Positions 33,225 through 53,285 of a stretch of 64,000 bases of DNA are shown here, one piece after another. The stretch is from NCBI GenBank assembly GCA_023267435.1, contig JAHFNH010000002.1:4219-68218 (forward strand), read 5' to 3'. A program made the position numbers and the translations under genes. Source of the DNA: Candidatus Nomurabacteria bacterium (GTDB lineage: Bacteria; Patescibacteriota; Minisyncoccia; Phycocordibacterales; UBA9973). Positions within the stretch are counted from its first letter, which is position 1. Every line of letters begins with the position of its first letter. Under the pieces are notes generated by a model. It ran no database searches and had not been told where the DNA came from. It saw only the letters and a list, made by a program, of their open reading frames with translations.

Positions 33225-33344
33225 ATTTTATATTTAATTAACTAATAGTTAGTTAGGCTAACAATCTAACATAATATATTTAAAAAGGCAAATAAAAAAG
33301 CACTGAACATCGTAATGAGAGGTGTGCTTTAATACTATTAAATA

Positions 33345-33800
33345 TTACTTACTTTCTAATACTTTAAGTACCCTAAGTTTGTCTTCTTCCGTCATTCTTT
33401 CCAAAAGAAGATTGTTTTTATCTTTAGTATATTTGTTTAATACCCAAAAAATAAAATTAGGGTCATCAGATAAGCAATTATTACTTTCTATAAAATTAAT
33501 ATCTTCCATTAAGGCATTAATTAATTTTGTAATAAATTCGTCCGATCTTAATACTTCTTCTTTTACAAATTCAGGTGAAATTACACCGACACTCAACTGT
33601 AAGGATTTAACATTAAGAATTACAAGAGTTTTTGTTTTAAGGTCAGACCAATCTGGGCTTTCGGTTTGATTCAAAATATCCTCTAACTTTTTATACATAT
33701 TGCTTATCCAATAATTAAAATTTTGTTCATGTTCTTTGGAAAGAGAACTAAAGACTTCTCTTGTTTTCCATACATGTGGTGTTTCATTTTTTTCTTCCAT
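33345..33800 (-). CDS. Hypothetical protein (island cassette 1, minus-strand arm)
   Basis: 151 aa, no recognisable motif. Driven by the palindromic promoter at 33865 and carries the conserved leader. Confidence 0.4.
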   Translation of the reverse strand: MEEKNETPHVWKTREVFSSLSKEHEQNFNYWISNMYKKLEDILNQTESPDWSDLKTKTLVILNVKSLQLSVGVISPEFVKEEVLRSDEFITKLINALMEDINFIESNNCLSDDPNFIFWVLNKYTKDKNNLLLERMTEEDKLRVLKVLESK

Positions 33801-33864
33801 AATATTAGATTTTTATATTGATTAAGAACTTTTGTTTATTTTTCCTTATACTACAAACAAATCA

Positions 33865-33876
33865 TTGACTTGTCAA
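33865..33876. promoter_or_regulatory. Palindromic shared -35 element TTGACTTGTCAA (bidirectional promoter 1)
   Basis: Plus strand: TTGACT-17-TATTGT. Minus strand: TTGACA-17-TAGTAT. Confidence 0.55.
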
Positions 33877-33950
33877 TGGGTTCGTGATATTGTTTGGTTA
33901 AATAGATTTCAGAAAACTAACCGAGCCTAGCTCATTAAAAAACAAAAAAT

Positions 33951-34274
33951 ATGAAAAATCTGTTACAGGAACTTTTATTAACTCATCAAAGTGTGAGAGG
34001 AGTTCAATTAAAAATTGTAAAACTTGCCGTTAATCGCTTAAACAGGTTATGTAAAAGAAAAATAGAATTTTCTGTACATGAAGATATAGAAGATAATTAT
34101 TATTGGATTTTTATTCCCAATAAAGTAGCTTTTGTTAAAAAAGTTAAACAACTTAATGAACAAATAAGAAAAGAATTAAAAGATGCGGATGCTAAATTTA
34201 ATCTCAGCTTTATGCCTCAAGCTACTAAAAGAAACATTCTCGATAGAAATGTAAACAAAGAAATTGTTTTTTAA
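33951..34274 (+). CDS. Hypothetical protein (cassette 1, plus-strand arm)
   Basis: 107 aa. Its conserved leader contains GAGCCTAGCTC. Confidence 0.4.
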   Translation: MKNLLQELLLTHQSVRGVQLKIVKLAVNRLNRLCKRKIEFSVHEDIEDNYYWIFIPNKVAFVKKVKQLNEQIRKELKDADAKFNLSFMPQATKRNILDRNVNKEIVF

Positions 34275-34293
34275 GAAAAATTATTTTTCAAAA

Positions 34294-34321
34294 AGCTCCA
34301 CAGAAATGTGGTGCTTTTTTA
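34294..34321 (+). terminator. Intrinsic terminator
   Basis: agctccaca-gaaa-tgtggtgct (one mismatch) followed by TTTTTT. Confidence 0.55.
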
Positions 34322-34395
34322 TTTATACTTACTCTAAACTTTAAAGATATTTCAGACAAATAAAAAAGCCTCCCCTTGCGGTTCGGCTTAATTGA

Positions 34396-34788
34396 CTAAA
34401 AAATATCTGTGTAATTATAAGAAGTGTTATTAGATGAATTTATTTCACCTGTACCTCCACATTTTCTACATTCAGAAATATAATATGGATCACCTCCACC
34501 TCCACCACACCTTTTGCATTTTTTCGCTTTCTTTTTATTGTCATAAAAACCATCTTCTATGTTCAATAATTTTTTTGTATTAAGAAGTTCGTGGTCATAA
34601 GGCAAAAAAGTACAAACTCTGTTATAGAATATCAAACTATTTTGCTGTTCTTTCCATGCATTAGTTAGAGCGTCAGAAGAACCAGCTATTACTATCCTTG
34701 GCATTAAAGGAGAATGGCTTGATTGTAACATTGCCATTACACCACCAGATTTATCGGATGTGATTAGAAGAATTGTGTATATTTCCAT
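34396..34788 (-). CDS. Hypothetical protein with two DnaJ-type CxxCxGxG zinc-finger repeats (cassette 2, minus-strand arm)
   Basis: 'CKRCGGGG...CRKCGGTG' at the C-terminus. The N-terminal 'ILLITSDKSGG...RIVIAGSSDALTNAW' looks like a small alpha/beta fold. Confidence 0.45.
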   Translation of the reverse strand: MEIYTILLITSDKSGGVMAMLQSSHSPLMPRIVIAGSSDALTNAWKEQQNSLIFYNRVCTFLPYDHELLNTKKLLNIEDGFYDNKKKAKKCKRCGGGGGDPYYISECRKCGGTGEINSSNNTSYNYTDIF

Positions 34789-34851
34789 TTGTATATAGTA
34801 TTTAATTGTTTAAGGACTCTGTTTATTTAACTTCACATTACCAAAAATTTG

Positions 34852-34863
34852 TTGACATGTCAA
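34852..34863. promoter_or_regulatory. Palindromic shared -35 element TTGACATGTCAA (bidirectional promoter 2)
   Basis: A perfect 12-bp palindrome. Plus strand: TTGACA-17-TAATGT. Minus strand: TTGACA-17-TAATGT through the 'cattaccaaa' block. Confidence 0.55.
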
Positions 34864-34906
34864 TTAGTCTATGTTAATGTTTAGTAAACCAAATAAAACT
34901 TGTACA

Positions 34907-35344
34907 ATGACAACAATAGAAAATTTAATCCTAGTCGGTGAAATTGAAAAACTCTTCAATGCTGACGCAAAAGCTAAAAAATATATTAAGGATGCAAAAT
35001 TCATATTAGTCTCTACAGATAATGTAAAGTACAAAATGATAATGCATTTAGCAAGCTATCCGTATGAATATCACTCCCAGGCGGTATTAAAATATATGGA
35101 AGACAACAATTTAAATGAAATCTATTCTTACGGTGGTGCTAAAATTGTATTAGGTACGATAGATGACGTATTGTGTCACGGAAAATCATACGCATTAAAA
35201 ACTGCCAATGATGAAAAGCTTACAGAAGTAGTAAAAAGTATTTGGCCAAATGCCGAATTAGAAATTATGACTTCTGGTGTAAAAGTTAAAGAGGCTATGC
35301 TTTTTCCAAAAGAACGAATTCAGTATTTTGCTGAACATCCTTAA
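34907..35344 (+). CDS. Hypothetical protein (cassette 2, plus-strand arm)
   Basis: Start moved to 34907 (MTTIENL) because the ORF-track start at 34871 lies inside the -10 element. Confidence 0.4.
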   Translation: MTTIENLILVGEIEKLFNADAKAKKYIKDAKFILVSTDNVKYKMIMHLASYPYEYHSQAVLKYMEDNNLNEIYSYGGAKIVLGTIDDVLCHGKSYALKTANDEKLTEVVKSIWPNAELEIMTSGVKVKEAMLFPKERIQYFAEHP

Positions 35345-35386
35345 GGTGATTTTAATTTATTAAATACGCTATTACAAAAACAAAAA

Positions 35387-35417
35387 ACTTGTCTGAATAT
35401 TCAGACAAGTTTTTTTA
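35387..35417. terminator. Bidirectional intrinsic terminator
   Basis: Perfect hairpin acttgtctga-atat-tcagacaagt flanked by an A-run and a T-run. Confidence 0.75.
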
Positions 35418-35422
35418 ATTTT

Positions 35423-35929
35423 TTAATTCAAAGGTTCTTTGTTTCTAATTAGTCTCAAGATCATTCTTATTGATTTAACTTGTTCATCAGAAAGAGAAAC
35501 CTGATATGATCCTACATTACATCTCTTTTGACCATTAAAATCTCGATATACATTCCCACATTTATCTTTAGACATCAAAGGCAGAATACCAAATCCAACA
35601 AGAGTTAGACTATGGCTATCAAGTAAAATCTTTTTACTTCCGTTATCATGAAGCATTTTATGTAAAAGAAATTTTACAATGTACTCAATATTACTACTGT
35701 GGTGCTCGATATTGTCATTGCAACCATAAAAAAATAATTGATTATTATTATCTCTCTTTATATGCAGAAGCGAACCCTGACTTTTGTAAAAAGTTAAGAT
35801 TTCATCAATTCCAAAAGTATTAATAAAATTATTAAATAATTTTACAATTTGATCATTTATTTCCTGAGGTCTTTTTTTATCGATTTTTGCAAAATCAATT
35901 GGCCTACTAAAATCTAGTTGTGATTCCAT
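35423..35929 (-). CDS. Hypothetical protein (cassette 3, minus-strand arm)
   Basis: 168 aa, no recognisable motif. Confidence 0.4.
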   Translation of the reverse strand: MESQLDFSRPIDFAKIDKKRPQEINDQIVKLFNNFINTFGIDEILTFYKSQGSLLHIKRDNNNQLFFYGCNDNIEHHSSNIEYIVKFLLHKMLHDNGSKKILLDSHSLTLVGFGILPLMSKDKCGNVYRDFNGQKRCNVGSYQVSLSDEQVKSIRMILRLIRNKEPLN

Positions 35930-35991
35930 TTTTATATATATTAAATTGTTTACGAACTCCGTTTATTTAACCTTAAACTACCAAAAAATTC

Positions 35992-36003
35992 TTGACCTGT
36001 CAA
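35992..36003. promoter_or_regulatory. Palindromic shared -35 element TTGACCTGTCAA (bidirectional promoter 3)
   Basis: Plus strand: TTGACC-17-TATTGT. The minus-strand -10 lies in the 'aaactaccaaaaa' block. Confidence 0.55.
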
Positions 36004-36107
36004 TGTTTTTGTGATATTGTTTGTTTAAATTTGTTGAGACAAAATCTCGTTAAACAAAACCTATATATCCCCCAACAATATTGTTTAATCCTTAAAAACT
36101 AAATATC

Positions 36108-36644
36108 ATGAAAAAACTATCAATGCTTTTATATCAAACTCAGGGCATTATCAAATTTTGTGAAGAAATAAATGCTGAATTAGTGAGATTGAAATTAACA
36201 AGAAAAACAACAGGTGGTTATCTGACCATCGTTGAACGCGATACAGGAGCTATTGTGTTAACAATCCTTATTGGAACACTCCAATTTGAAAGGACGGCAA
36301 AACATCGCAGATTATCCATTGAACAAGCAAAGAGGGTGTTTGATGAAAAACTTTCTTCCTCATTCCAAAACAGAAATATCGAACAAGGGAAATCGGCAGG
36401 AGCTGTTTCAGGAGAGAAATTTATCTATTCATTTTCCGGTCACTGTGAAGAAATAAATGAAGTTGTTTCCATACTTTCGTGTATTGAAAACGAACAATAT
36501 TTAAATCCTGAGTTTCAGGCAAATTTACGGCAAGGTGAAGATCCCAAGCCAATGGATGTAATCCTGAAAAAAATGGACCTTGAATCAAAATTTATGATGG
36601 TTTCTGGTATTCGCAGTTTTATCAGCAAAATATTTGTTTGGTAA
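36108..36644 (+). CDS. Hypothetical protein (cassette 3, plus-strand arm; GC noticeably higher than neighbours)
   Basis: 178 aa with a long 113-nt leader. Confidence 0.4.
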   Translation: MKKLSMLLYQTQGIIKFCEEINAELVRLKLTRKTTGGYLTIVERDTGAIVLTILIGTLQFERTAKHRRLSIEQAKRVFDEKLSSSFQNRNIEQGKSAGAVSGEKFIYSFSGHCEEINEVVSILSCIENEQYLNPEFQANLRQGEDPKPMDVILKKMDLESKFMMVSGIRSFISKIFVW

Positions 36645-36664
36645 GTTCTTTGGTAAAAATTAGA

Positions 36665-36696
36665 AAGCCACTGGTGAAAATCAGTGGCTTTTTTTA
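36665..36696. terminator. Bidirectional intrinsic terminator
   Basis: aagccactg-gtgaaaat-cagtggctt followed by TTTTTTT. Confidence 0.75.
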
Positions 36697-37959
36697 TTTA
36701 ATTACTGCATTCGTTCCTGCCACAAAACCCGTCGTCCAGCATATTTGCAGACTATATCCTCCAGATGGACGGTCTATGTTTAATAAATCTCCAATTATAT
36801 AAAGATTTGGATATAATCTGGAACGCATAGTTTTGAAATCAATTTCATTTAACGCTACACCTCCGCTAGAAACTATTGCTTTATCTAAACCCAAAAGTTT
36901 ATCGATATTTATTGGAATTCCTTTTAATAAAGAAATTAATTTTATGCGTTCTTCACGAGTCACACTATTGCATTGAATTTCTGGATCAATGCCGGATAAT
37001 TCCACTACAACTGGTACGACAGATGATAAAATCAAACCAGCTAAACAATTTTTAAATTTCTTTTTATCATTTTCTTTAAATATTTCTAAAAGCTTTAGAT
37101 TAAGTTTTTCTTGATCGAAATTTGGTAAAAGATCTAATTTTATTACCACATCGCCATAGCCTAACAATCCACCTATATCTTTGCTCATATTTAAAATAGT
37201 GGGTCCACTGACGCCGACATGGGTAAATAGAATTTTACCTGTTTTTGAAATAGGACGTTTTTTGATAAATTGTTTTACATCATCCAAGTAAACAGTGAGT
37301 TTTACATTATCAAGACTGACTCCAGCTAATTTTTTAATCCATTTATCTTTCGTAGCGAGTGGCACAAGCGAAGGTATCGGTTCGATGATTGTATGCCCGA
37401 TATTTTTTAGCCATTTGAATGCGTCCCCTGTCGAACCTGTTTCTGGATGAGATTTACCTCCAGTAGCGACGATAATAGAACGAGCATAAATTATTTTATC
37501 TACAATTTTTACACCAATGATATTTTTATTTTCTATAACAAAATCAACAACTGGAGAATTTGATAATATTGTTACTTTTTCTTTTTTAATATATTCCACC
37601 ATAACATTCCAAACGGATTGAGATTTATTACTAACAGGGAAAACTCTTTGTCCTGGTTCTATTTTTGTTTCCATATTTCTGTTATGGAAAAAATCCAATG
37701 TTTCCTTTACGCTATATTGTGAAAAAGCTGAAAATAAGAATTTTCCGTCGTCTTTGAATTTTTCCAGAAGTTTCCTGTTGTCGAATTCTGCATTGGTGAC
37801 ATTACATCTGCCTCCGCCTGTAATAAGGAGTTTCTTGCCTAGAGAGTCATTTTTCTCAATTAAAATAACTTTTGCGCCGAGTTCAGCTGCTCGTCCTGCC
37901 GCCATCATTCCAGACGGTCCGCCTCCTATTATAACCACATCCCAAACATTTTCTTTCAT
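36694..37959 (-). CDS. HI0933/YhiN-family FAD-dependent flavoprotein
   Basis: 'DVVIIGGGPSGMMAAGRAAELGAKVILIEKNDSLGKKLLITGGGRCNVTN' is the signature of this family. Confidence 0.7.
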   Translation of the reverse strand: MKENVWDVVIIGGGPSGMMAAGRAAELGAKVILIEKNDSLGKKLLITGGGRCNVTNAEFDNRKLLEKFKDDGKFLFSAFSQYSVKETLDFFHNRNMETKIEPGQRVFPVSNKSQSVWNVMVEYIKKEKVTILSNSPVVDFVIENKNIIGVKIVDKIIYARSIIVATGGKSHPETGSTGDAFKWLKNIGHTIIEPIPSLVPLATKDKWIKKLAGVSLDNVKLTVYLDDVKQFIKKRPISKTGKILFTHVGVSGPTILNMSKDIGGLLGYGDVVIKLDLLPNFDQEKLNLKLLEIFKENDKKKFKNCLAGLILSSVVPVVVELSGIDPEIQCNSVTREERIKLISLLKGIPINIDKLLGLDKAIVSSGGVALNEIDFKTMRSRLYPNLYIIGDLLNIDRPSGGYSLQICWTTGFVAGTNAVIK

Positions 37960-38078
37960 TTTTATATGTTAGCACAAAAAATTTAAAGAAAATAAATAGA
38001 TTGACATATCGTATGTTTTATGATATCATCTCTATCAGAAATAGAATTGTTGTTTAACATAATATAAAAACCAAAAAA

Positions 38079-38513
38079 ATGAAAACTTTAATTATTTTAG
38101 ATAATTTAATAGGATTACAAAATTCCTTAATTATCGCTTGTGTTTGTATTGCAGTTGGCTTCGTTGTCTTTATTTATTTATTTTTGCTTTTTAAAGCAGC
38201 GTCATCAGCTCCATTGAAACCACTTATAACCAAACCGCGCAAAACGGTTGGACTTCCGGAATTACCGGATGGAACAAATCTGATCATTTTAGACAATAAA
38301 GAAGATTTGCCGATCGCACAAGATATTAAAGATTACAATATTGGTTTGAAAAAAAATGTTCTTGAAAATACTTTCTATCTTGCTAATTTTGGCAAAGAGA
38401 AATTGGAAGTAAATCAGGTTTATATCGTCAAACTGATAGGTAGTGGCAAGATCCATACTTTATGCAAAGTTGAAATTATGTTCAGCCCGGAGTACAACAC
38501 ACATCTAAATTAA
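38079..38513 (+). CDS. Hypothetical membrane-anchored protein
   Basis: 144 aa with one TM. Confidence 0.35.
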   Translation: MKTLIILDNLIGLQNSLIIACVCIAVGFVVFIYLFLLFKAASSAPLKPLITKPRKTVGLPELPDGTNLIILDNKEDLPIAQDIKDYNIGLKKNVLENTFYLANFGKEKLEVNQVYIVKLIGSGKIHTLCKVEIMFSPEYNTHLN

Positions 38514-38581
38514 GTTTTAAAGAACCAATCGTTAATAATGATTGGTTCTTTTATTTTTATATATAATGCTATAATAAAAAA

Positions 38582-39142
38582 ATGAAAAAACTTGCCAGTA
38601 AAATGTCTTTTTTAAAAACAATGGTGTGTGATTTCAAAGTAGCTGCTGTCGCCAGCAGTTCGTCTTATGTTGTTAATCGCGTTATTAGTAAAATTGACGA
38701 TGGTTTGAATTTGATTATTGAACAAGGTTCTGGAGATGGAGTTATGACTAAAGCTTTGCTTACAAAGCTTTCCCCTGATGGAGCTTTAATCCTAATAGAA
38801 ACTAATCCAGAATTTGTAAAACAATTAAAAAAAATTGAAGACAAAAGAATCACAATATTTTTTGGTACTGTCCAAGATTTTTATAAAAAAATAGATGCAA
38901 ATCATTCTAAAGCAGATCTTGTCATATCCAGCATCCCCTTTTCTTTTCTAAAAACATCAGAAAGAGATGAAGTAATTAAAAAAAGTTTCGAAGTGCTTTC
39001 TGATTCTGGAAGTATGGTTATTTTTCATCAATACAGTCTCCTAATGCACAAATATGTTAAAAAATATTTCAAACATGTTTCAATCTTTTTTGAACCTAGA
39101 AATGTGATGCCGTGTTTTATAATTTTCGGTAAGAAAAAATAA
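38582..39142 (+). CDS. Class I SAM-dependent methyltransferase
   Basis: Motif I 'IIEQGSGDGVMT', an acidic residue after beta2 'LIETNPEF', and motif IV 'VISSIPF'. Confidence 0.55.
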   Translation: MKKLASKMSFLKTMVCDFKVAAVASSSSYVVNRVISKIDDGLNLIIEQGSGDGVMTKALLTKLSPDGALILIETNPEFVKQLKKIEDKRITIFFGTVQDFYKKIDANHSKADLVISSIPFSFLKTSERDEVIKKSFEVLSDSGSMVIFHQYSLLMHKYVKKYFKHVSIFFEPRNVMPCFIIFGKKK

Positions 39143-39146
39143 AAAA

Positions 39147-39176
39147 AGACTTATTTAAACAATAAGTCTTTTTTTA
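39147..39176. terminator. Bidirectional intrinsic terminator
   Basis: agacttatt-taaac-aataagtct followed by TTTTTTT. Confidence 0.7.
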
Positions 39177-39179
39177 TTT

Positions 39180-39743
39180 TTATATTTTTCCGATTAAATC
39201 AACACCTGGCGTTAAAACATCTTTGCCTGGCTCCCAGTTTGCTGGGCAGACATTTCCTTTATGTTCTCTTACGAATTTAGCCGCTTCTAATTTTCTAACC
39301 ATTTCCTTTGCACTTCGGCCAATGTTATTGTCATGAATTTCTATTGTCTTTAAAACTCCATCTGGATCAATAATAAAAGTCCCTCTTAAGGCCAATCCTT
39401 CAGTTTCAATATAAGTCCCAAATGCTCTAGAAATATTACCTGTCGGATCAGCCAGCATTGGATATTGTATTTTACCTATAGCAGGAGAAGTATCATGCCA
39501 AGCTTTATGCGCGAAAGCTGTATCAGTACTAATACTCATAATCTCTCCTCCTAATTTTTTTATTTCTTCGTAATGTACGGTTGCATCTTCTAATTCTGTC
39601 GGACAAACGAAAGTAAAATCTGCAGGATAAAAAATTAGTACTACCCATTTGCTTTTATAATCAGAAAGCTTGATTTTCTTTATCTCATTATTTTGATACG
39701 CATCCAGCTCAAAATCTGGAACAATTGAATTTATATTTATCAT
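39180..39743 (-). CDS. Peroxiredoxin (typical 2-Cys, AhpC/TSA family)
   Basis: 'FYPADFTFVCPTE' peroxidatic Cys motif and a resolving Cys near the C-terminus 'GNVCPANW'. Confidence 0.85.
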   Translation of the reverse strand: MININSIVPDFELDAYQNNEIKKIKLSDYKSKWVVLIFYPADFTFVCPTELEDATVHYEEIKKLGGEIMSISTDTAFAHKAWHDTSPAIGKIQYPMLADPTGNISRAFGTYIETEGLALRGTFIIDPDGVLKTIEIHDNNIGRSAKEMVRKLEAAKFVREHKGNVCPANWEPGKDVLTPGVDLIGKI

Positions 39744-39826
39744 AGTATTATTATACTCCCAATTTCTTAGATTGTAATCAATCTGTAGAAATTGCAGTCC
39801 TTTAGGGCTAATAAAAAGTATTAAAT

Positions 39827-41056
39827 CTATAAGCGTTCTTTTTCTTCTTCTTCTATTCTTTCTAGTGCTAAGATAAAAGCTGCACGGCGCAGATCTGTTT
39901 TGAGCGAGTTTGCTTTTTCGTAAATTTCCAACGCCTCGTTAACCATGATTGTTTTTAATTTCGCAAAAACATCAATTTCATTCCAATGCTCGCCTTTTAG
40001 ATTTTGTTCCCATTCAAAAGTTGAGACCGTAACTCCTCCGGCATTTGCAAGGATATCTGGAATAACTGAAATACCGCGTCCAAACAAAATATCATCAGCT
40101 TCTGGAGTAGTTGGGCCGTTAGCAAGCTCCATGACAAGTTTCGTTTTTATATCATTAGCATTTTTCTCTGTAATCTGGCTTTCCATTGCGGCAGGAATAA
40201 GAACATCGCATTCCAGGATTAGAAGTTCATTGTTGGATATTTTTCTAGATCCCGGGAATCCTTCAATTTTTCCATTTACTTTTTTATACTCGTTTAGTGC
40301 ATTTATATCAATTCCATCTTCTTTTAAAATTGCTCCATCTACTTCTGAGATAGCTATTATTTTATGTCCATTTTGAAATAAAATATTTGCAGCATTTCCC
40401 CCAACATTTCCAAATCCTTGAATTACAATCTTACAAGATTCGGGTAAATGTAATTTACTGCGAAGTGTATCAAAAACATAAAATCCTCCGAGTCCTGTAG
40501 CTGGACCCCTGCCTTCTGATCCGCCAGCTTCTATCGGTTTTCCAGTAAATGTCGCATTTGTTTTATCGCCAGTAATTTTTACATATTCATCAGCCATCCA
40601 AGCCATAATTTCCGGAGTCGTATTCATATCAGGCGCTGGCACGTCTATTTTTGGACCAATATCTCTTGCCATCATTTTTACCCAACCACGTGAAAGTTTT
40701 TCTATTTCACCTTTTGATAATTCTCTTGGGTCAACAGTCACACCGCCTTTACCACCACCCATCGGAATGTTTACCACAGCGCATTTGAGCGCCATCCAAA
40801 ATGCCAACGCTTTAACTTCATTAATATCAGTATCTTTGTGGTATCTAATACCACCTTTGTATGGACCACGGGCATTATTGTATTGAACACGATAACCCTC
40901 AAAAACCTTTAAAGAGCCATTATCCATAGTTATTGGAATAGATATTCTAATTTCACGTTCTGGTTGTGTTAGAAGTGAAATAAATTCAGGGTTAAATTGT
41001 TTTACTTTTGTAGCTCTTTCGAGCTGATTCATTGCATTTTGAAATGGATTATTCAT
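39827..41056 (-). CDS. gdhA: Glutamate dehydrogenase (Glu/Leu/Phe/Val dehydrogenase family)
   Basis: 'GPYKGGIRYH', the 'GGGKGG' active-site region, and the Rossmann 'GFGNVG'. Confidence 0.85.
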   Translation of the reverse strand: MNNPFQNAMNQLERATKVKQFNPEFISLLTQPEREIRISIPITMDNGSLKVFEGYRVQYNNARGPYKGGIRYHKDTDINEVKALAFWMALKCAVVNIPMGGGKGGVTVDPRELSKGEIEKLSRGWVKMMARDIGPKIDVPAPDMNTTPEIMAWMADEYVKITGDKTNATFTGKPIEAGGSEGRGPATGLGGFYVFDTLRSKLHLPESCKIVIQGFGNVGGNAANILFQNGHKIIAISEVDGAILKEDGIDINALNEYKKVNGKIEGFPGSRKISNNELLILECDVLIPAAMESQITEKNANDIKTKLVMELANGPTTPEADDILFGRGISVIPDILANAGGVTVSTFEWEQNLKGEHWNEIDVFAKLKTIMVNEALEIYEKANSLKTDLRRAAFILALERIEEEEKERL

Positions 41057-41141
41057 AGATATTTTTATTAATTATTTTAATAGAAATATCATATACTTTC
41101 TTTATGAAGCTGCCATGAAGATAAATTTAAAAATAAAAAAG

Positions 41142-46179: not shown

Positions 46180-46262
46180 AGTTGCCTCCTTTTTTAAAGT
46201 TTAACTAATTCTATTTAAAGATTACCATAATAATGGTATTAGTCAATGAAGTTTGTGTGAAT

Positions 46263-46296
46263 AAAAAAACCCCCTCATAACATATATAAGGGGGTT
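46263..46296 (-). terminator. Intrinsic terminator (minus strand)
   Basis: aaccccct/agggggtt stem with a T-run on the minus strand. Confidence 0.7.
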
Positions 46297-46324
46297 GGAC
46301 ACTAGAGAGAAACGGCAACAACTT

Positions 46325-46630: not shown

Positions 46631-46701
46631 TTTTGCAGGTTTTTAGTGTTAGACATTTATTTCAAGTAACTAAATCTTTTTATCACATTACCAAATATCC
46701 G

Positions 46702-46713
46702 TTGACTCGTCAA
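46702..46713. promoter_or_regulatory. Palindromic -35 element TTGACTCGTCAA (promoter 4, minus strand only)
   Basis: Minus strand: TTGACG-17-TAATGT. There is no -10 on the plus side. Confidence 0.5.
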
Positions 46714-46721
46714 TGTTGAAA

Positions 46722-46758
46722 TAAAAAAGCACCTCAGTTATATCGAGATGCTTTTTAT
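46722..46758 (-). terminator. Intrinsic terminator (minus strand)
   Basis: gcacctc/gagatgc stem (one mismatch) flanked by an A-run and a T-run. Confidence 0.5.
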
Positions 46759-46772
46759 TTAATTCTTTGTGA

Positions 46773-47324
46773 TCAACTTATTAATTTTTCAATAAATTCT
46801 TTTTTGAAAACAATTGCGTAATCACGATTTTCAAACCAATGATCTGTGGCTTCAAATGGTCTTAAAACTGGAATTTTATCGCTAAATATTTGATATTCAA
46901 AACAAAGAATATTTAAATACTTTTCATCATTAATTGGTGTCGCCATCGAACCAAAAAAGTTGATTGTATTTAATTTATTTGGATTATGAATACCTCCTAT
47001 TTCATTCCACCATTTTGATTTTAACTCTATTAATATTTCACGATCTTCCAATATTGCCCTTGCGCAAAATACATCAAGTGGAATATGTTTCTCATCTATT
47101 ACTTGCTGTCTGAATTCTAATCCAGTAACAAATCGTTTTTTAACAGGAATAAAACACGTATCATCAAGTGTAAAAGGAATGTGCCAAATAAAATTCATTA
47201 ATTGGTATTGTTTTAAAATAAAGAAATCTCCATACTCATCAGTAATCTTATTACTAAAAGTAAAAGGTTTGTCTGTATTGATAACTATTTTTTTCATTTT
47301 ATTAAGTTTTAGAGTATTTATCAA
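46773..47324 (-). CDS. Hypothetical protein
   Basis: 183 aa ORFan. Confidence 0.4.
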   Translation of the reverse strand: MINTLKLNKMKKIVINTDKPFTFSNKITDEYGDFFILKQYQLMNFIWHIPFTLDDTCFIPVKKRFVTGLEFRQQVIDEKHIPLDVFCARAILEDREILIELKSKWWNEIGGIHNPNKLNTINFFGSMATPINDEKYLNILCFEYQIFSDKIPVLRPFEATDHWFENRDYAIVFKKEFIEKLIS

Positions 47325-47429
47325 AGATCTATGCTTGTTTGTATAATAAAATTATTATACACAAAAGTCAATTTCTGACCTAAAGTTTTACTACTAGACA
47401 AGACCTAGTCGATTAAAATAAGGTTTAAA

Positions 47430-48092
47430 TTACCAAGCCATTTTCTCCCCTTTGAACCAAAATTGTCCAGTTTCAACTTTTGATATAGCTAAATCATAAA
47501 TATAACCAGCTGATTCTTCGGTGGTCATAGGTGCGTCACTACCACCCATATCTGTTTTTACCCAGCCAGGGTGATATGAGGATACAGTTATTTTATCTTT
47601 CAAGTGAATAGCCAGTGTTCGAGTATACATATTGAGTGCAGTTTTTGAAATTCTGTAACTTGGATATTCATCGTCATCTATTTCTTGAGTCTTAGCCAGA
47701 GATCCAGCCGAAGACGCAGCATTTAATATATGAGCTCCAATACTAAGAACAGAAATAATTTGTTCTGTAAAAGTAATAGTTCCAATTAAATTTACTTCAA
47801 GTGTTTTTCTTAAATTTTCTATATTTACTGTGTTGAAATTTCTATCAACAAGAATTCCAGCATTATTAATTAAAATATCTATTTTTTTATTTAAAAATTT
47901 AATTTCATTAACACACTCTGTGATACTTTCCGAGTTTGATAAATCTATCTTAACAATTTTTAGATTGTCACTTTTAATATCAGAATTTCCATCAGTAGAA
48001 GTTCCGATCACATAATGACCTTCTTTTAAAAACTTTTCTGTCAGAGCTTTTCCTATTCCTCTACTAACTCCTGTTATTAATACTGTTTTCAT
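47430..48092 (-). CDS. Short-chain dehydrogenase/reductase (SDR)
   Basis: 'TGVSRGIGKA' cofactor site, 'NNAG', and catalytic 'YRISKTALN'. Confidence 0.8.
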   Translation of the reverse strand: MKTVLITGVSRGIGKALTEKFLKEGHYVIGTSTDGNSDIKSDNLKIVKIDLSNSESITECVNEIKFLNKKIDILINNAGILVDRNFNTVNIENLRKTLEVNLIGTITFTEQIISVLSIGAHILNAASSAGSLAKTQEIDDDEYPSYRISKTALNMYTRTLAIHLKDKITVSSYHPGWVKTDMGGSDAPMTTEESAGYIYDLAISKVETGQFWFKGEKMAW

Positions 48093-48159
48093 AATTATGT
48101 ATTATATCAAAAATTGTTTCTGGATGTTGAACATACGGAAACATATTACCAAAGATTCG

Positions 48160-48171
48160 TTGACTCGTCAA
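48160..48171. promoter_or_regulatory. Palindromic shared -35 element TTGACTCGTCAA (bidirectional promoter 5)
   Basis: Plus strand: TTGACT-17-TATTGT, with a leader containing GAGCAATTGCTC (48217-48228). Minus strand -10 lies in 'cattaccaaag'. Confidence 0.55.
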
Positions 48172-48245
48172 TGTTTTTGTGATATTGTTCAGGTAAATAA
48201 TTTCTGAGTATAAACCGAGCAATTGCTCATTAAAAATATAATATT

Positions 48246-48911
48246 ATGAGAAGAGAAAGAATTAATAACTTTATGGAACTTTATTTCCCTGGAATTAAGG
48301 AGTGGCATTCGAAGCCGATTTTTAAATTTTATTTTGAATTTGAATTTAATGGAGTAAAAAATATATCTGCAACAGCCTATTTTTTCTGCATTCATCATGT
48401 TACAGATGTTTACAACGATGAATGGGAAATAAAATCTGATGATATATTTTTAGATCTCATGGGTAAAATTTATTTATTAAAAAATATTACAACTAATTAT
48501 GATATGGAAATAATATTTAATGGGTATCAAAGAAGTTTTAAATATTTTTACGAAGAAGAAAAAGTGCAAATTGGTTACAGTATAAATAGCAAAAGTGGGA
48601 CGAATTTAAAACCATTTGATACCTTTGACATTCCGAAATCTAAATGGAAATTAGTTAAACTCTTATTAGAAATAACTGAACTCCCTAAAGGATCTGAACC
48701 AGAAGAAATAAGAAAATTACTTATAGGAGAAAAGTTTCCTCTCAGTACTTGTTGTAATCTGGCTTATAGAAAGGATGGGTGTATTTTTATTCCACGAGGA
48801 GATGTTGTTGAAACATTAGAAAAATCTGGGAAAAATGAAAGTGCTGATTATTATCATAATCAAAATAAAGATTATATTTCTTTCAATTCCGGGTGCTATA
48901 AATTATTATAA
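48246..48911 (+). CDS. Hypothetical protein
   Basis: 221 aa ORFan whose leader is conserved with the gene at 33951. Confidence 0.4.
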   Translation: MRRERINNFMELYFPGIKEWHSKPIFKFYFEFEFNGVKNISATAYFFCIHHVTDVYNDEWEIKSDDIFLDLMGKIYLLKNITTNYDMEIIFNGYQRSFKYFYEEEKVQIGYSINSKSGTNLKPFDTFDIPKSKWKLVKLLLEITELPKGSEPEEIRKLLIGEKFPLSTCCNLAYRKDGCIFIPRGDVVETLEKSGKNESADYYHNQNKDYISFNSGCYKLL

Positions 48912-48923
48912 AAAAAGCCAAAA

Positions 48924-48956
48924 AGCTGATAACTATATCGTTGTCAGCTTTTTTTA
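48924..48956 (+). terminator. Intrinsic terminator (plus strand)
   Basis: agctgataac/gttgtcagct stem (one mismatch) followed by TTTTTTT. Confidence 0.65.
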
Positions 48957-48962
48957 TTTCTT

Positions 48963-48995
48963 AAAAATAAAAAAACGCCCAACATTGTTGGACGT
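48963..48995 (-). terminator. Intrinsic terminator (minus strand)
   Basis: cgcccaaca/tgttggacg stem with a T-run on the minus strand. Confidence 0.55.
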
Positions 48996-49018
48996 TAATT
49001 GTGATTTTGTTTCAAGAT

Positions 49019-49519
49019 TTATTCAGATGGCACTATAAACTTGTGCAGTTCATCTATGTTTATCATAAGATATTTGTATTGTTTGCAAAACGTAATACTT
49101 TTAATAAATTTCTCTTTATTAAGGAGAATCTTAATAGCTTCAGACAAAGACCCACTAAGATAATCAAGGCTTTTTAGTTCATCGATTGTACCGCTACTGC
49201 TTAGTAAAACATTTTCAATATCTTCAAGGTAAGCCTGAGCACTGTCTACTTTCTTTAAATCAATTGCTTCATAGACTGAGTCAGATTTCAAACGATTAGC
49301 ATTAGATTTAAATAATTCTAATTGTTTTTTTAAATCTTTATTGGTTTTCTTGTAAGTTTTAAGCCAATTTTTAAACTCAGGAGAATCAACTGATAAAGTT
49401 TTTTTCTTGTAGTTTAATTGTGTTAAAGAATCCTGGGCAACCAATGAAGTCTCCTGGGAATAAACCATCTTTACATACAATGTAAGACAGATTACGAAAA
49501 ATAGTTTTATCGCTTTCAT
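49019..49519 (-). CDS. Secreted hypothetical protein (coiled-coil)
   Basis: Start placed at 'MKAIKLFFVICLTLYVKMVYSQ' (signal peptide). The ORF-track start at 49585 would span the upstream inverted repeat. Confidence 0.4.
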   Translation of the reverse strand: MKAIKLFFVICLTLYVKMVYSQETSLVAQDSLTQLNYKKKTLSVDSPEFKNWLKTYKKTNKDLKKQLELFKSNANRLKSDSVYEAIDLKKVDSAQAYLEDIENVLLSSSGTIDELKSLDYLSGSLSEAIKILLNKEKFIKSITFCKQYKYLMINIDELHKFIVPSE

Positions 49520-49547
49520 ATTTATATAGTTTAGAATTGTTAGATTG

Positions 49548-49600
49548 ATTGATTTAGTTACTTTAGTCTCCGTGTAGAAGTTCAAAGTAACTAAATCAAT
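49548..49600. repeat. Perfect 17-bp inverted repeat attgatttagttacttt / aaagtaactaaatcaat with a 19-nt spacer
   Basis: Read directly. It lies 29-82 nt upstream of the 49519 start codon. Confidence 0.6.
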
Positions 49601-49715: not shown

Positions 49716-50471
49716 TTAATTACTCTTCGAGTCCCCTTTCAATGTAGCAAAAGCTTCTTGCACTGTAGTCATAAACTGAGCTGGGAAGATAATTGTTGAA
49801 TTCTTTTCAGTTGCTATTTCAGACATTGTTTGAAGTGTTCGAAGTTGTAATGCCACTGGATGAGCAGCAATAAGATCTGCTGCTTGTCCCAATTTCTCAG
49901 CAGCCTGGAATTCACCTTCAGCTGCGACAATTTTCGCACGACGTTCACGTTCTGCTTCGGCTTCTTTTGCCATGGCTCGTTGCATATTGTCAGGTAAAGT
50001 AATGTCTTTTATTTCGACTGCTGTTACCTGAGCTCCCCATGGTTCTGTATGGGAATCGATTACATCTTTGATTTGAATATTAATATCACTTGTTTGTGAA
50101 AGTAGTTGATCAAGAGAAAAACGGCCTACTACGTTTCGCACTGTCGTCTGACTGATTTGGTTAACAGCATCATAAACATTTTCAATTGCCACGACAGACT
50201 TTTGAGGATCAACAATGTGATAATACGCTACTGCAGCAATATCTATCGAAACATTATCTTTAGTAATAATTTTCTGTGACGGAATATTCATAGTAATTGT
50301 ACGTAAAGTGACTTTAGTCATACGTTCAAAAACTGGAACTAGAATAATAAGTCCAGGGCCACGCACTCCTGTGCATTTACCAAGGAAAAATATAACACCT
50401 CGGTCATATTCTTTGACCACTTTTAGTGATAATGAAAGCAATACTACTATTAATATGATTATGTATAACAT
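49716..50471 (-). CDS. SPFH/Band-7 (stomatin/prohibitin-like) protein
   Basis: N-terminal TM, '[12 protein letters not shown]', and an Ala/Glu-rich coiled coil '[22 protein letters not shown]'. Confidence 0.8.
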
Positions 50472-50791
50472 AAAGTGAGTATAGCACTTTCAGCTACTTC
50501 TTCAAATTTTTCTTGATTATCCATCAATTCATCAGGGACTTTCCAGTAACACATTGAAATAACTTTGCCGTCTGTTCTTTTGTAATTAAATTTATTCCAG
50601 CCTAAAGATGCGAGTTTATCAGCTAGTTCCCCTTTTGCTTTAAAATAAACTTGATTATCAATAATTAAAGAAAAAGGTATTCCTTTAGAATAAATACACC
50701 AGCCACCCATCATAGCTCGTGAAGTTATATGAGAGAGATTATTCATGAGGTCATAAACGACATAATCATGATATGAGGTATCTTTTTTCAT
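50459..50791 (-). CDS. TfoX N-terminal-domain-like protein
   Basis: '[26 protein letters not shown]' fits the TfoX_N pattern. It overlaps the SPFH gene by 13 nt, so the two are an operon. Confidence 0.4.
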
Positions 50792-50887: not shown

Positions 50888-51046
50888 TTAAAAAACAGCA
50901 ATACTTATAATTAACATTATAACAAAACTTAAAAATGAATTTAATAAAATTTGACTAAAACCATGTCCAGTAGAAAATCCAATCATTATAGATATAATAG
51001 CAAGAATTATAAATAACTTATTATTTTGTTTTTTATTATTTTCCAT
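50888..51046 (-). CDS. Small membrane protein
   Basis: 52 aa, 'MENNKKQNNKLFIILAIISIMIGFSTGHGFSQILLNSFLSFVIMLIISIAVF', found by manual translation of an intergenic gap. Confidence 0.3.
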   Translation of the reverse strand: MENNKKQNNKLFIILAIISIMIGFSTGHGFSQILLNSFLSFVIMLIISIAVF

Positions 51047-51092
51047 ATAATTTATATTATATCACATATCGTTAATACAAAAGTCTTACTCG

Positions 51093-51707
51093 TTAAACTT
51101 TTTTTTGAAGTTCAGAATCAAACCAAATAGCCTTCTTTTTTCCTATTAATCTAGAAAATATAGCGATTCTCTCTCTGCGCTTTAGGCTAAACACTTTTTC
51201 TATTTCTATAGTTTTTAATCTATGAGATTGTTCTTCACTAATACAATTACCATTATGTGTACAAATTTTTTCAACTTTAATCACCCCTCTTTTTTTATAA
51301 TATTTTTTTGAGCATTCAATATCACAAAATAGTGTATTTGGAGCTCTGCTATATAAAGACTTGTTACAATTTAAACAAAACATAAACGAACGAATATTAT
51401 TAACTCTTTGTTTCTTTTCTTCCCTTTTTATTTTTATCCAACATTCTATGCATAATGAATAATAGGTGTCTCTTCCACATGTACTACATTTATAAATTGG
51501 TCTGTATTCAGTGTTTTGAGTTATAGGTTTTACATAAAAATTATTTTTTATCTTTAAAATTCTTTCATATGCGTTATAAACTAACGTAAAAGAAGAATCA
51601 TTACCACCTTTGTCTGGGTGGGTTTTCTTTGCTTTTTCAAGGTATGCTTTTTTAATTTCTTCTAATGATGAGTACTGTGACACACCTAGAATTTCATAAT
51701 CATTCAT
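51093..51707 (-). CDS. J-domain protein with Cys-rich (zinc-ribbon-like) C-terminal region
   Basis: 'DYEILGVSQYSSLEEIKKAYLEKAKKTHPDKGG' with the HPD motif. Cys pairs follow: CSTC...CIEC, CLNC...CDIEC. Confidence 0.6.
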   Translation of the reverse strand: MNDYEILGVSQYSSLEEIKKAYLEKAKKTHPDKGGNDSSFTLVYNAYERILKIKNNFYVKPITQNTEYRPIYKCSTCGRDTYYSLCIECWIKIKREEKKQRVNNIRSFMFCLNCNKSLYSRAPNTLFCDIECSKKYYKKRGVIKVEKICTHNGNCISEEQSHRLKTIEIEKVFSLKRRERIAIFSRLIGKKKAIWFDSELQKKV

Positions 51708-51710
51708 AAA

Positions 51711-52460
51711 TTATTTCTTCTTTAAAATATTTAATACTGTTGACACTTCATCAATAAATTGTGCGTTTGCGGGCTTTAATTCATGAGGCATAAATTTAGT
51801 TCTTAAAATATTTTTAGTTGAATATCTTTCTTTTTTCATTGGAAGCAATGGACCACGTCCGTTATGATAAAGTTGCCATAGTGCTTCATGAATACCTTCT
51901 AAAAGGATACAAAATTTTTCCAATTCACTAATATTAACTTTATCAAAAAGAATTTTAACTTCTTCATTGGTAGAATATTTCTTATGTCCGAACTGGTGTC
52001 TTATTGGACGATATATATTTTCATAAATTTTCTGTTGTTTTGAAATAAATTTTTTAAATTTTCTAAAATCATCATCAGTTGGCTCATAAAAACTTTCCAT
52101 ATATTTTTTTAAATAGCTATTCATTTTATCAGTTTTTTTATCTTCATTGTTTACCCATCTTTTTTTAAATGATTTTTTAGAAAAAAGAGATTTATTATTT
52201 TCAACAACTTTAAATAAAGTATGGATGTTGTGCTTGGATTCATTATCAAAAATCCTTCCAATTGTTATGAAAGTTGAATTTTGAAAACCACTAAGAACTG
52301 TATTCCAAAATGTCGGAGTTCTATTCATGGTACTAAGGATATGTTTATTTTTATTAACAATAACATGAATTGCTAACTCCATATATAGATATTTAGAAAG
52401 AAGAATAACTTCATTTCTAAAAATATTTAATTCTAGTAAGAATTTTTCTTCCGAAGACAT
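51711..52460 (-). CDS. Hypothetical all-alpha protein with an Rx4H (HEPN-like) motif
   Basis: 'YRPIRHQFGHKK' matches R-x4-H. It is co-oriented with, and 3 nt from, the J-domain gene. Confidence 0.3.
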   Translation of the reverse strand: MSSEEKFLLELNIFRNEVILLSKYLYMELAIHVIVNKNKHILSTMNRTPTFWNTVLSGFQNSTFITIGRIFDNESKHNIHTLFKVVENNKSLFSKKSFKKRWVNNEDKKTDKMNSYLKKYMESFYEPTDDDFRKFKKFISKQQKIYENIYRPIRHQFGHKKYSTNEEVKILFDKVNISELEKFCILLEGIHEALWQLYHNGRGPLLPMKKERYSTKNILRTKFMPHELKPANAQFIDEVSTVLNILKKK

Positions 52461-52641
52461 AGAACTATTTTACCATTTTTTAATTTTTGTAAACTAAAAA
52501 ATATATTTTATTAAGCATTTTAAGTGCGTGGACCTAATTCAAACTGGCTAGCATCCTCTGTCTCAGATACTCCAAGACTTTGCAGTATAAAGGTTTCAGG
52601 ATGATTCTTAGTATACCATTTTGACGCTCTTCGGAATAACT

Positions 52642-53163
52642 TTAAAAACAGAAATTAATGAAAGAAACCAAAATTAGTGCTAACCCAACAAATGCAGCAA
52701 TAAACACATAATTTAATATCGAATCAATAAATTTAACTCTGATTATTCTTGGTTTAATTTCTGTATCATTAACTAAACCAACGAACTCATCTGCGTATTT
52801 CTTCATGGCTTCTTCCTCCTTCTCTAGAATTGCCTTTTTAATCTTTGCCGCATCATCTTGGTAGTCATAAATTAAATTAGATGTTGAAATTGTGGAATTT
52901 ACTAGAGAATGTTTGAGGCTGAAAGCCAAATAAAGTATGGAACCAATCATTAACAACTCACCAAATAAAAATAATTCTAAATTTTCTATGAATTGAAAAG
53001 CAGTAAATCCAAATCCAGCAATAAGACCGAGAATACCCATAAGTGTATTCGCAAGTGAAATAACCTGCTGAACCTCACTATTTTCTCTCTCAGCAAGTTT
53101 TTCTCTTATGGCAATACTGAACTGAGCTCTGTTTGTTAAATTTTTTATTTGTTCTTCATTCAT
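52642..53163 (-). CDS. Hypothetical membrane protein
   Basis: 173 aa with three or four TM segments. Confidence 0.4.
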   Translation of the reverse strand: MNEEQIKNLTNRAQFSIAIREKLAERENSEVQQVISLANTLMGILGLIAGFGFTAFQFIENLELFLFGELLMIGSILYLAFSLKHSLVNSTISTSNLIYDYQDDAAKIKKAILEKEEEAMKKYADEFVGLVNDTEIKPRIIRVKFIDSILNYVFIAAFVGLALILVSFINFCF

Positions 53164-53208
53164 GACCTTTTGCTATGCTCCGCGGACTCCGAACTTACCT
53201 CAACTTTG

Positions 53209-53279
53209 CTGGGAGACATGGACTCGAACCATGATTCACGGCTTCAAAGGCCGCTGTCCTACCATTAGACGATCTCCCA
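53209..53279 (-). tRNA. tRNA-Gln (anticodon UUG)
   Basis: Manual fold: acceptor TGGGAGA/TCTCCCA (7 bp), D-stem GTCT/GGAC, anticodon stem GCGGC/GCCGT with loop CTTTGAA, T-arm CATGG-TTCGAGT-CCATG, discriminator G. No encoded CCA. Confidence 0.8.
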
Positions 53280-53285
53280 ATTTTA

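Follow-up and report, generated by a model that had tools for sequence, protein, structure and literature searches.

Organization of the locus

The window analyzed here, a 64,000-nucleotide stretch of a contig from a Candidatus Nomurabacteria bacterium, is AT-rich (~32-37% GC) and carries, between 33.3 and 53.2 kb, a region of mostly small genes next to a glutamine tRNA gene. An earlier reading of the sequence (the original prediction) took this region to be an island attached at the tRNA, with marR as its other edge. The tRNA-Gln(UUG) gene lies at 53208-53279 on the minus strand (ARAGORN; 64 bits in Rfam), so its 3' end points into the region and, as had been predicted, the two adjoin: the first open reading frame (ORF) starts 45 nt from the tRNA 3' end. 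An Rfam scan returned nothing besides two tRNAs. The housekeeping flanks recognized by Pfam include dus, dnaX, an ftsQ-like gene, serS, dprA, topA, relA/spoT and parB on the right, and PBP2, a DUF4015 protein and CtpA on the left.

Counting ORFs of 60 aa or more, the region (33345-53163) contains 27, of which 21 are on the minus strand and six on the plus strand, and 17 have no Pfam match. This agrees with the earlier description of about 25 genes, mostly on the minus strand and mostly without a recognizable family. The genes annotated by Pfam encode an HI0933 flavoprotein, an S-adenosylmethionine-dependent methyltransferase (SAM-MTase), a peroxiredoxin (AhpC/Prx), a glutamate dehydrogenase (GDH), a P-type ATPase, an SDR, and Band7, TfoX_N, DnaJ/Zn-ribbon and HEPN_AbiU2 proteins; the peroxiredoxin, GDH, HI0933, SDR and P-type ATPase had all been recognized by eye. 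All six plus-strand genes between 16.7 and 58 kb fall within the region, which therefore interrupts an otherwise uniformly minus-strand stretch. Region genes are shorter than those of the flanks (median 173 aa versus 316 aa) and more widely spaced (median spacer 119 nt versus 20.5 nt), and the contrast with tightly packed core genes drawn in the original prediction is thus real.

All window proteins were compared by tblastn with genome loci anchored on DnaX and with 80 metagenome loci anchored on Dus; the related set comprises 46 loci (given below by L numbers), and about 10 kb beyond dnaX is readable in each relative. The nearest relatives in a genome scan with DnaX are Candidatus Nomurabacteria/Paceibacterota metagenome-assembled genomes (MAGs), L001 and L007 being 78% and L002-L006 48-57% identical. 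DnaX itself had no exact match on file, probably owing to a differing start call. On the right, dnaX (DNA polymerase III gamma/tau; 53616..54683, minus strand) is the conserved anchor by Pfam and synteny, and the flank on its side is syntenic, at 48-84% amino-acid identity, in L001, L007, L004, L005 and most of L081-L160. The order dus-dnaX-tRNA-Gln is conserved throughout the clade, followed by the ftsQ-like gene, serS, dprA, topA, relA and parB in that order, and tRNA-Gln is next to or near dnaX in about 41 of the 46 related loci.

The left anchor (21769..24085, minus strand; tblastn and Pfam) consists of a 99-aa ORF (23786-24085), an 87-aa membrane protein (23484-23747) and PBP2 (21769-23487). 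Its genes are matched by tblastn in L007, L089, L093 and L134; PBP2 is 67-75% identical in L007, L089, L093, L113 and L134, and CtpA and others continue leftward. In the window the 87-aa and 99-aa ORFs sit between PBP2 and the pilin genes, and in relatives they are kept beside PBP2. Synteny resumes in six loci (L007, L089, L092, L093, L113 and L134) with a small ORF, the 87-aa membrane protein, PBP2, a small ORF and CtpA. The left limit of the variable DNA thus appears to be marked by the 87-aa membrane protein and the 99-aa ORF, and not by marR (32790-33224), which had also been described as ending at 33224; that position is its start. Relative to the closest genomes, the variable interval extends from 24.1 to 53.6 kb and is, at 29.5 kb, about 50% larger than the island first proposed.

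A probable clade-wide hot spot of gene turnover

The distance from dnaX to the left anchor differs widely among genomes: it is 0.95 kb in L092 and in L093, 1.8 kb in L089, 2.9 kb in L134, 5.1 kb in L113 and 5.35 kb in L007, versus 29.5 kb in the window, which makes these six closed intervals 5- to 30-fold shorter. What lies between the anchors is different in every genome. In particular, 409 interval ORFs (370 from the 46 relatives and 39 from the window) fall into 314 clusters, 265 of them singletons, and a Pfam survey of 150 interval proteins of the relatives finds 168 families, none of which occurs in more than two loci. The 17 unannotated genes of the region, together with the ATPase, SDR, Band7, TfoX and AbiU2 genes, are absent from the interval in all 46 related loci, and the 17 small proteins are undetected in any related interval even with phmmer at E = 0.05. 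Gene content and order conserved across relatives, the observation that would have refuted the original prediction, were therefore not what we found; with unconserved content between syntenic flanks in the 46 loci, the view of the region as accessory DNA is upheld.

The relatives share the compositional and architectural signature of the window. Across 33 of them the interval has a GC content of 38.8% versus 41.0% in the core, and is lower in 31 of the 33 loci (p = 3e-6); its genes are shorter (171 versus 317 aa, p = 3e-5) and its spacers longer (p = 0.008). This common signature of low GC, short genes and long spacers suggests a clade-wide hot spot, of which the window holds an unusually large filling. 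In addition, tRNA-Gln is inverted relative to dnaX in nine loci (L001, L095, L100, L123, L126, L129, L134, L150 and L159), and the variable genes of relatives often lie on both sides of the tRNA, also between dnaX and the tRNA. The inversions and the genes on both sides suggest that tRNA-Gln is a recombination-prone resident of the hot spot and not a fixed border.

A GIY-YIG nuclease gene and partial copies of tRNA-Gln

Absent from the original prediction, and outside its coordinates, is a 78-aa stand-alone GIY-YIG nuclease gene between dnaX and tRNA-Gln (53286..53522, minus strand; Pfam E = 1.9e-15). The intact tRNA-Gln lies 6 nt past this ORF. Just upstream of the ORF (53523..53592, minus strand), positions 1-25 of tRNA-Gln are repeated in split form, a GC-rich hairpin of 40 nt breaking the copy after about position 11. 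An exact 14-mer, CTAATGGTAGGACA, is present two times in the window, versus 0 expected. The same arrangement of GIY-YIG gene and split tRNA is present in L123 (12490-12900), with 76% amino-acid identity and inverted relative to dnaX. The GIY-YIG gene is absent at the dnaX/tRNA-Gln position in L001, L007, L004 and L005; eight other loci carry homologues within their hot spot, and the ~10 kb upstream of dnaX never contains one.

Partial duplicates of tRNA-Gln are found in several other relatives and lie 40-220 nt away across loci. Duplicates of the 5' half, 13-29 nt long, occur in L002, L004, L100 and L157, and duplicates of the 3' end, 15-19 nt long and 170-220 nt downstream, in L099 and L157. 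These copies are probably the footprints of repeated insertion or recombination at this tRNA, and the GIY-YIG module resembles a homing-type insertion by which the tRNA gene was rebuilt.

Terminators of the region

Terminators and promoters alike are predictions from sequence. A gene was counted as having a strong terminator when a hairpin with a free energy of at most -12 kcal/mol and a T run lay within about 100 nt, and by this definition 15 of the 27 region genes have one, versus 3 of 43 flank genes (Fisher p = 1e-5). The region contains 23 terminator-like sites (7.9 +/- 3.1 in shuffled sequences), and the left 20 kb contains 13 (10.1 in shuffled sequences). About 13 distinct strong hairpins lie within 34290..48996, four of them bidirectional and serving convergent pairs. 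The bidirectional hairpins are at 35382-35415, 36663-36692, 39137-39180 and 48920-48953, and the others at 34290-34319, 34366-34389, 38519-38551, 43967-43995, 44982-45012, 45706-45742, 46268-46296, 46725-46755 and 48974-48996. The number of hairpins is thus close to the 14 or more counted earlier, but the claim of nearly one terminator per gene holds for only 15 of the 27 genes; own terminators are missing in the tRNA-proximal part (49.7-53.2 kb) and in the run of ATPase, GDH and peroxiredoxin genes. The hairpin sequences are unrelated to one another, which rules out a repeat family or a family of miniature inverted-repeat transposable elements. A scan of the region for sigma-70 promoters gave no enrichment (102 versus 107.7 expected) and is uninformative because the DNA is AT-rich.

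A promoter and leader common to several small genes

A search for repeats revealed a further feature absent from the original prediction, an 84-nt family in four spacers of the region, with its core in a fifth. The core is a perfect palindrome, TTGACnnGTCAA, found at 33865, 34852, 35992, 46702 and 48160, and all five exact sites in the window are spacers of the region. With at most one mismatch and both strands counted, the palindrome has 13 matches in the window versus 1.57 +/- 1.49 expected; in 2.1 Mb of related loci it occurs once, at the start of the L134 hot spot. The palindrome can be read as a pair of overlapping -35 hexamers, back to back, with a predicted extended -10 element 17 nt after each, TGaTATTGT on the plus strand and TGgTAATGT or TGgTAATAT on the minus strand.

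The copies, all given on the plus strand, are at 33812..33895 (palindrome TTGACTTGTCAA at 33865), 34799..34882 (TTGACATGTCAA at 34852), 35939..36022 (TTGACCTGTCAA at 35992; 79% identical to the second copy over 84 nt), 46684..46717 (TTGACTCGTCAA at 46702) and 48107..48190 (TTGACTCGTCAA at 48160). The fourth copy, upstream of the helix-turn-helix (HTH) gene g46325, retains the minus-strand half, its right half being deleted, and the fifth lies between the SDR gene (minus strand) and g48246 (plus strand). The element separates the divergent pairs g33345/g33951, g34396/g34871, g35423/g36108 and SDR/g48246. In addition, four minus-strand genes have a common leader, AAATAAAC-N-GTYCnTAAACAA, which has four matches in the window, all within the region, and no match in the relatives. 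In other samples, homologues of g44006 and g35423 retain parts of the promoter and leader. A scan of viral contigs for the promoter motif gave 12 matches, which we judge to be at chance level for 17 specified bases.

Together with the terminators, these elements suggest that the small genes are transcribed as autonomous units, from promoters and to terminators of their own, and that five units or pairs would use a homologous back-to-back promoter. The common promoter and leader possibly reflect a common regulator, a common cassette origin, or both.

The small unannotated genes

The small genes are concentrated in two blocks. Block A (33345..36644) consists of three tandem units built on the divergent pairs g33345/g33951, g34396/g34871 and g35423/g36108; each unit comprises a minus-strand gene, a shared bidirectional promoter, a plus-strand gene and a terminator, and the paired genes are unrelated. 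The listed ATG of g34871 (34871-35344, plus strand) is only 8 nt past the -35 box of its own promoter, and for this reason the real start is probably Met13, at 34907. Block C (43683..49585) contains nine small genes without a Pfam match and the SDR gene (47430-48092), and most of its genes have their own terminator. Among them are the Xre-type HTH gene g46325 (46325-46630, minus strand; HTH_3 in its homologues), which matches PDC-M64B/C of PADLOC, and a lipoprotein-like gene (45022-45510). Also in this block is g44576 (44576-44929, minus strand), whose 117-aa product matches the N-domain of Abi_C proteins; the match is confined to the N-terminal 100 residues of proteins 247-248 aa long with an Abi_C domain at their C-terminus, and g44576 may be a truncated remnant of such a protein.

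The original prediction called these genes ORFans, a term that does not hold in the strict sense. Exhaustive HMMER searches with eight proteins of the 43.7-48.9 kb segment found homologues for all eight, in families of 2, 5, 7, 12, 16, 18, 31 and 41 representatives (at the 50% clustering level, the query's own entry excluded), and g35423 has two homologues, 60-65% identical, in other samples and with different neighbors. All nine proteins tested therefore belong to sparse families, and true ORFan status is ruled out for them. Where the context of a small-gene homologue was read, the gene was single and lay amid unrelated chromosomal genes of other low-GC contigs. A metagenome scan with g44006 found no relatives. 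BLASTP detected no paralogy among the proteins of these cassettes, and Smith-Waterman comparison gave two borderline z-scores of about 5. AlphaFold2 predicts confident structures for the g46773 and g48246 families (pLDDT 93.9 and 90.9, respectively), and a Foldseek search of the PDB with these two families returned no fold match. The small unannotated genes thus appear to encode real proteins of sparse families and not orphans.

A word-indexed protein search with the 17 proteins concatenated into a single query (2551 aa) gave no matches, and this was a false negative: the same collection holds identical proteins and 30-65% homologues that the concatenated query missed. Concatenated-query negatives in word-indexed protein searches are unreliable, and apparent ORFans can arise from search sensitivity, which calls for caution in annotation.

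Clade-typical genes and the tRNA-proximal block

Block B (36694..43514; Pfam) contains genes for the HI0933 flavoprotein, a 144-aa membrane ORF, the SAM-MTase, the peroxiredoxin, GDH and the P-type ATPase. The peroxiredoxin has an 81% identical homologue in the L099 hot spot, 6 kb past tRNA-Gln; GDH has 44-47% identical homologues beside PBP2 in L101 and L129, and HI0933 has 44-47% identical homologues beside dnaX in L120 and L131. The homologues of the ATPase form a continuous series up to 73% identity, with 60-73% in Paceibacterota, Taylorbacteria and Sungbacteria, and where named they belong to Paceibacterota, Taylorbacteria, Sungbacteria and Minisyncoccia. GDH and the ATPase are adjacent at 39827-43514 and again, with their order reversed, at an unrelated locus on a Patescibacteria contig of 51% GC (L183, 8711-12349; 63% and 71% amino-acid identity). 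Their adjacency at two unrelated loci suggests that the pair is a conserved, relocating unit. HI0933, the peroxiredoxin, GDH and the P-type ATPase thus appear to be clade-typical genes.

The tRNA-proximal block (51093..53163, minus strand; Pfam) comprises a 173-aa membrane protein (52642-53163), HEPN_AbiU2 (51711-52460; Pfam E = 7e-17) and a J-domain/Zn-ribbon protein (51093-51707), the last two genes being 3 nt apart. The J-domain/Zn-ribbon protein has a 57% identical homologue in L106, 1 kb past tRNA-Gln. AbiU2 and the J-domain protein were considered as a conserved two-gene system, a candidate rejected on the grounds that the partner in L106 is unrelated and that PADLOC has no match for the pair. 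No complete known defense system was recognized in the region.

Composition and searches for mobility functions

The coding sequences of the region have a GC content of 31.2% versus 35.0% in the flanks, so that a slight shift in GC, one of the checks proposed with the original prediction, is present; a shift in synonymous codon usage is not. In their synonymous codons the unannotated genes do not depart significantly from the flanks (z = 1.29; 12% of random core subsets lie equally far away), and the annotated enzymes are indistinguishable from the flanks (z = 0.01). The amino-acid composition of the unannotated set deviates somewhat (z = 2.2), Ala and Gly being depleted and Asn, Leu, Lys, Tyr and Cys enriched, and the order GC1 > GC2 > GC3 in the region is the pattern of the host. 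The compositional shift is small and stems from the spacers and the amino-acid composition, foreign codon usage having no part in it; comparison of GC, codon usage and amino-acid composition with the flanks gives no sign of a compositionally foreign donor.

None of the 27 region ORFs contains an integrase, transposase or recombinase family of Pfam, and a crude regular expression for recombinase motifs finds none in the window or in the hot-spot ORFs of relatives. Nor does a recombinase family recur among the 150 interval proteins of relatives, as judged from the 25 most frequent of their 168 Pfam families. The 3' end of tRNA-Gln, searched as a 22-mer and a 16-mer with up to three mismatches, has no second copy in the 64-kb window, which confirms the earlier inspection by eye. 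PHROGs gives no structural, replication or lysis family for the region; its few matches, which are weak or concern the J-domain, are to families without known function or to HTH regulators, and tblastn with the 17 small proteins finds no match in 50,697 phage records or in plasmid records. As for integron features, Pfam detects no IntI integrase, and the sole recurring intergenic element is the promoter and leader described above.

Origin of the region

We think it probable that the 33.3-53.2 kb region is the larger part of a 29.5-kb filling of a gene-turnover hot spot common to Nomurabacteria-like Patescibacteria. The hot spot is bounded, as the synteny indicates, by dus-dnaX-tRNA-Gln(UUG) on one side and by the 99-aa ORF, the 87-aa membrane protein, PBP2 and CtpA on the other. 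Its filling is best explained as a mosaic built gene by gene or in small blocks, and not as one integrated element. One part of the mosaic consists of 'shell' genes that move within these genomes (HI0933, the peroxiredoxin and the GDH-ATPase pair), to which the pilus and efflux operons described below probably also belong. Another part consists of about 17 small genes of sparse unannotated families, two of which are predicted to fold with high confidence, and a third of putative defense-flavored pieces, namely AbiU2 with its J-domain protein, the Abi_C N-domain and the Xre-type HTH.

Genes would enter and leave such a hot spot when incoming DNA recombines with the conserved flanks, as happens in those hot spots of transformable bacteria that are free of mobile genetic elements (MGEs). 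The window contains genes related to DNA uptake (DprA, the type IV pilus and a TfoX-like gene). DNA breaks introduced by the GIY-YIG nuclease, whose gene is found repeatedly beside tRNA-Gln, may promote this recombination, and selection would tolerate insertions at the hot spot because no operons are broken there.

Several points weigh against this interpretation. The closest relatives are only ~71-78% identical in Dus and DnaX, so that turnover is seen between genera or families and not between strains, and part of the difference could be old rearrangement and not recent transfer. The absences cover about 10 kb past dnaX, and 'missing' genes, including the pilus and efflux operons, could sit elsewhere in these genomes. 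The 3'-end repeats in L099 and L157 demonstrate that this tRNA has been a target of site-specific insertion in the clade; the survey of relatives for integrases covers the 25 most frequent Pfam families, the motif search being crude; and the recombination mechanism is one that we infer.

A classical alternative would make the region the remnant of an island or prophage that entered through a tyrosine integrase at the 3' end of tRNA-Gln and has since lost both the integrase and the distal attachment (att) site. Adjacency to the tRNA 3' end, the 45-nt gap to the first ORF, the slightly lower GC and the 15-19-nt duplicates found 170-220 nt downstream of tRNA-Gln in L099 and L157 fit this account. 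Against it stand the lack of an integrase, of an att repeat within three mismatches in 64 kb and of any phage-family signal, the host-like codon usage, and components with separate histories and homologue contexts. Moreover, the variable genes of relatives also lie between dnaX and the tRNA, which is inverted in nine loci and sits inside the variable zone, so that the proposed role of the tRNA as an attachment site finds no support and such a remnant is distinctly unlikely. A model without horizontal transfer, in which an old, vertically inherited and fast-evolving interval was shaped by differential loss, local rearrangement and divergence beyond recognition, is consistent with the host-like codon usage, with HI0933, peroxiredoxin and GDH genes in the same interval of other clade members, with the smooth series of ATPase homologues within the phylum and with a GC drop largely explained by amino-acid composition (z = 2.2) and spacers. 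However, the core proteins of the flanks are 60-84% identical in genomes whose intervals yield none of the 17 small proteins at phmmer E = 0.05, and the homologues of small proteins, 44-65% identical, lie in unrelated contexts of other organisms, which movement fits better than decay in place. With 265 of 314 clusters singletons over the 46 loci and six closed intervals 5- to 30-fold smaller, purely vertical descent seems rather unlikely.

The small genes might form a cassette pool specific to these Patescibacteria, in which unrelated ORFs on a common TTGACnnGTCAA promoter/leader chassis, each with a private terminator, are captured at one hot spot by GIY-YIG-driven recombination that targets and rebuilds tRNA-Gln: an integrase-free counterpart of integrons. 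Integron cassette arrays resemble the region in their unrelated small ORFs of unknown function, their recurring structured intergenic sequence and their fixed adjacent chromosomal site; unlike them, the region has no IntI, attI or attC, its recurring element is a promoter and leader at the 5' end where integrons have a recombination site at the 3' end, and its units alternate in orientation and carry a terminator each. We consider a dedicated capture system of this kind unlikely. The palindrome could also be the operator of one regulator, for example the Xre HTH protein of g46325, which itself carries the element, and the cassettes would then be one regulon. An error of assembly or binning, joining foreign contigs to a Patescibacteria scaffold at the tRNA and at marR, has to be considered for a metagenome-derived contig (311,840 bp, present in NCBI, ENA and Logan), and repeats such as tRNAs are common misjoin points. 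It is scarcely credible here: independent Logan contigs from run SRR14366756 (including L161) match 39771-49965 at 100%, and also the g35423 region; codon usage and the GC1/2/3 pattern match the flanks; clade-typical genes lie inside; and a comparable interval occupies this position in relatives.

Relation to known systems

Integrase-mediated islands at tRNA genes, such as those at selC, leuX and pheV in Enterobacteria, share with the region a position directly 3' of the tRNA, lower GC, many genes of unknown function and absence from relatives. The region differs from them in the lack of an integrase and of a 3'-end repeat, its mosaic composition, host-like codons and variable genes that straddle the tRNA in relatives. 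Phage 'morons', reportedly described by Hendrix and colleagues as autonomous promoter-ORF-terminator units inserted between genes, are similar in that single small genes carry their own near-consensus promoter and strong terminator (both predicted here) and leave their neighbors undisturbed. Unlike morons, the small genes of the region are found with no prophage and no link to phage structural or mobility functions, and several share their promoter and leader.

The preferred reading, a mosaic hot spot, has a parallel in the MGE-free hot spot flanked by recombining core genes, established by Oliveira, Touchon, Cury and Rocha in 2017 (PMC5635113). In that study, MGEs are absent from about half of the hot spots of horizontal gene transfer, and a tRNA or tmRNA gene is present in 29% (PMC5635113). 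As in those hot spots, one interval between syntenic core genes gathers accessory genes with rapid turnover, there is no integrase, transposase, prophage or integrative and conjugative element, a tRNA lies in the spot, and the host lineage has genes for DNA uptake. Unlike them, the present hot spot is defined across genera or families (54-78% amino-acid identity in the flanks) and not within a species pangenome, and its host is an ultra-small Patescibacterium.

Genomic islands called by composition-based software are reported to be common in Patescibacteria MAGs, with transfers mostly within the phylum (PMC12455944), which fits the within-phylum homologues found here. The region resembles those islands in its phylum and in being an accessory, lower-GC part of a streamlined genome, and differs from them in that the locus is defined by synteny over 46 relatives and in its tRNA-Gln/GIY-YIG association and shared promoter. 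Because such islands have already been reported as frequent in Patescibacteria (PMC12455944), the category is known. The locus is an ordinary kind of feature, an MGE-free hot spot, that is well documented here.

Patescibacteria genomes are tiny and streamlined, yet they continue to gain and lose genes. Our analysis suggests that, throughout this clade, one interval beside dnaX and tRNA-Gln takes most of the local gene flux without recognizable mobile-element machinery, and the GIY-YIG/tRNA-Gln module may explain why the site is recombinogenic. The confidently folding proteins of unknown function and fold, and the promoter and leader that could define a regulon, offer experimental handles. For annotation, the locus is a caution that tRNA adjacency and unannotated genes need not mean an integrase-borne island.

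Other genes of the variable interval

To the left of the region, the variable interval includes a complete type IV pilus cluster (24195..29443, minus strand; Pfam T2SSE, T2SSF and N_methyl) with the PilB ATPase, PilC and five pseudopilins. The cluster was not found in the interval of relatives whose interval is closed, and a pilin homologue is present in the L003 hot spot. Next to it lies a MarR/HlyD/HlyD/MFS operon resembling Emr efflux systems (29497..33224, minus strand; Pfam). This operon does not occur in the interval of relatives; L007 has MscL and a MacA/ABC/MacB set instead, to which the HlyD gene shows only 30% identity. Within the region, the TfoX_N and Band7/SPFH genes (49716..50791, minus strand; Pfam) overlap by 13 nt and are therefore probably a two-gene operon.

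Across the window, the cumulative GC skew has a maximum at ~16.7 kb and a minimum at ~58 kb, which coincide with switches in gene orientation from plus to minus and from minus to plus, respectively. As the two extremes are just 41 kb apart, they reflect the transcribed strand and not a replication origin or terminus.

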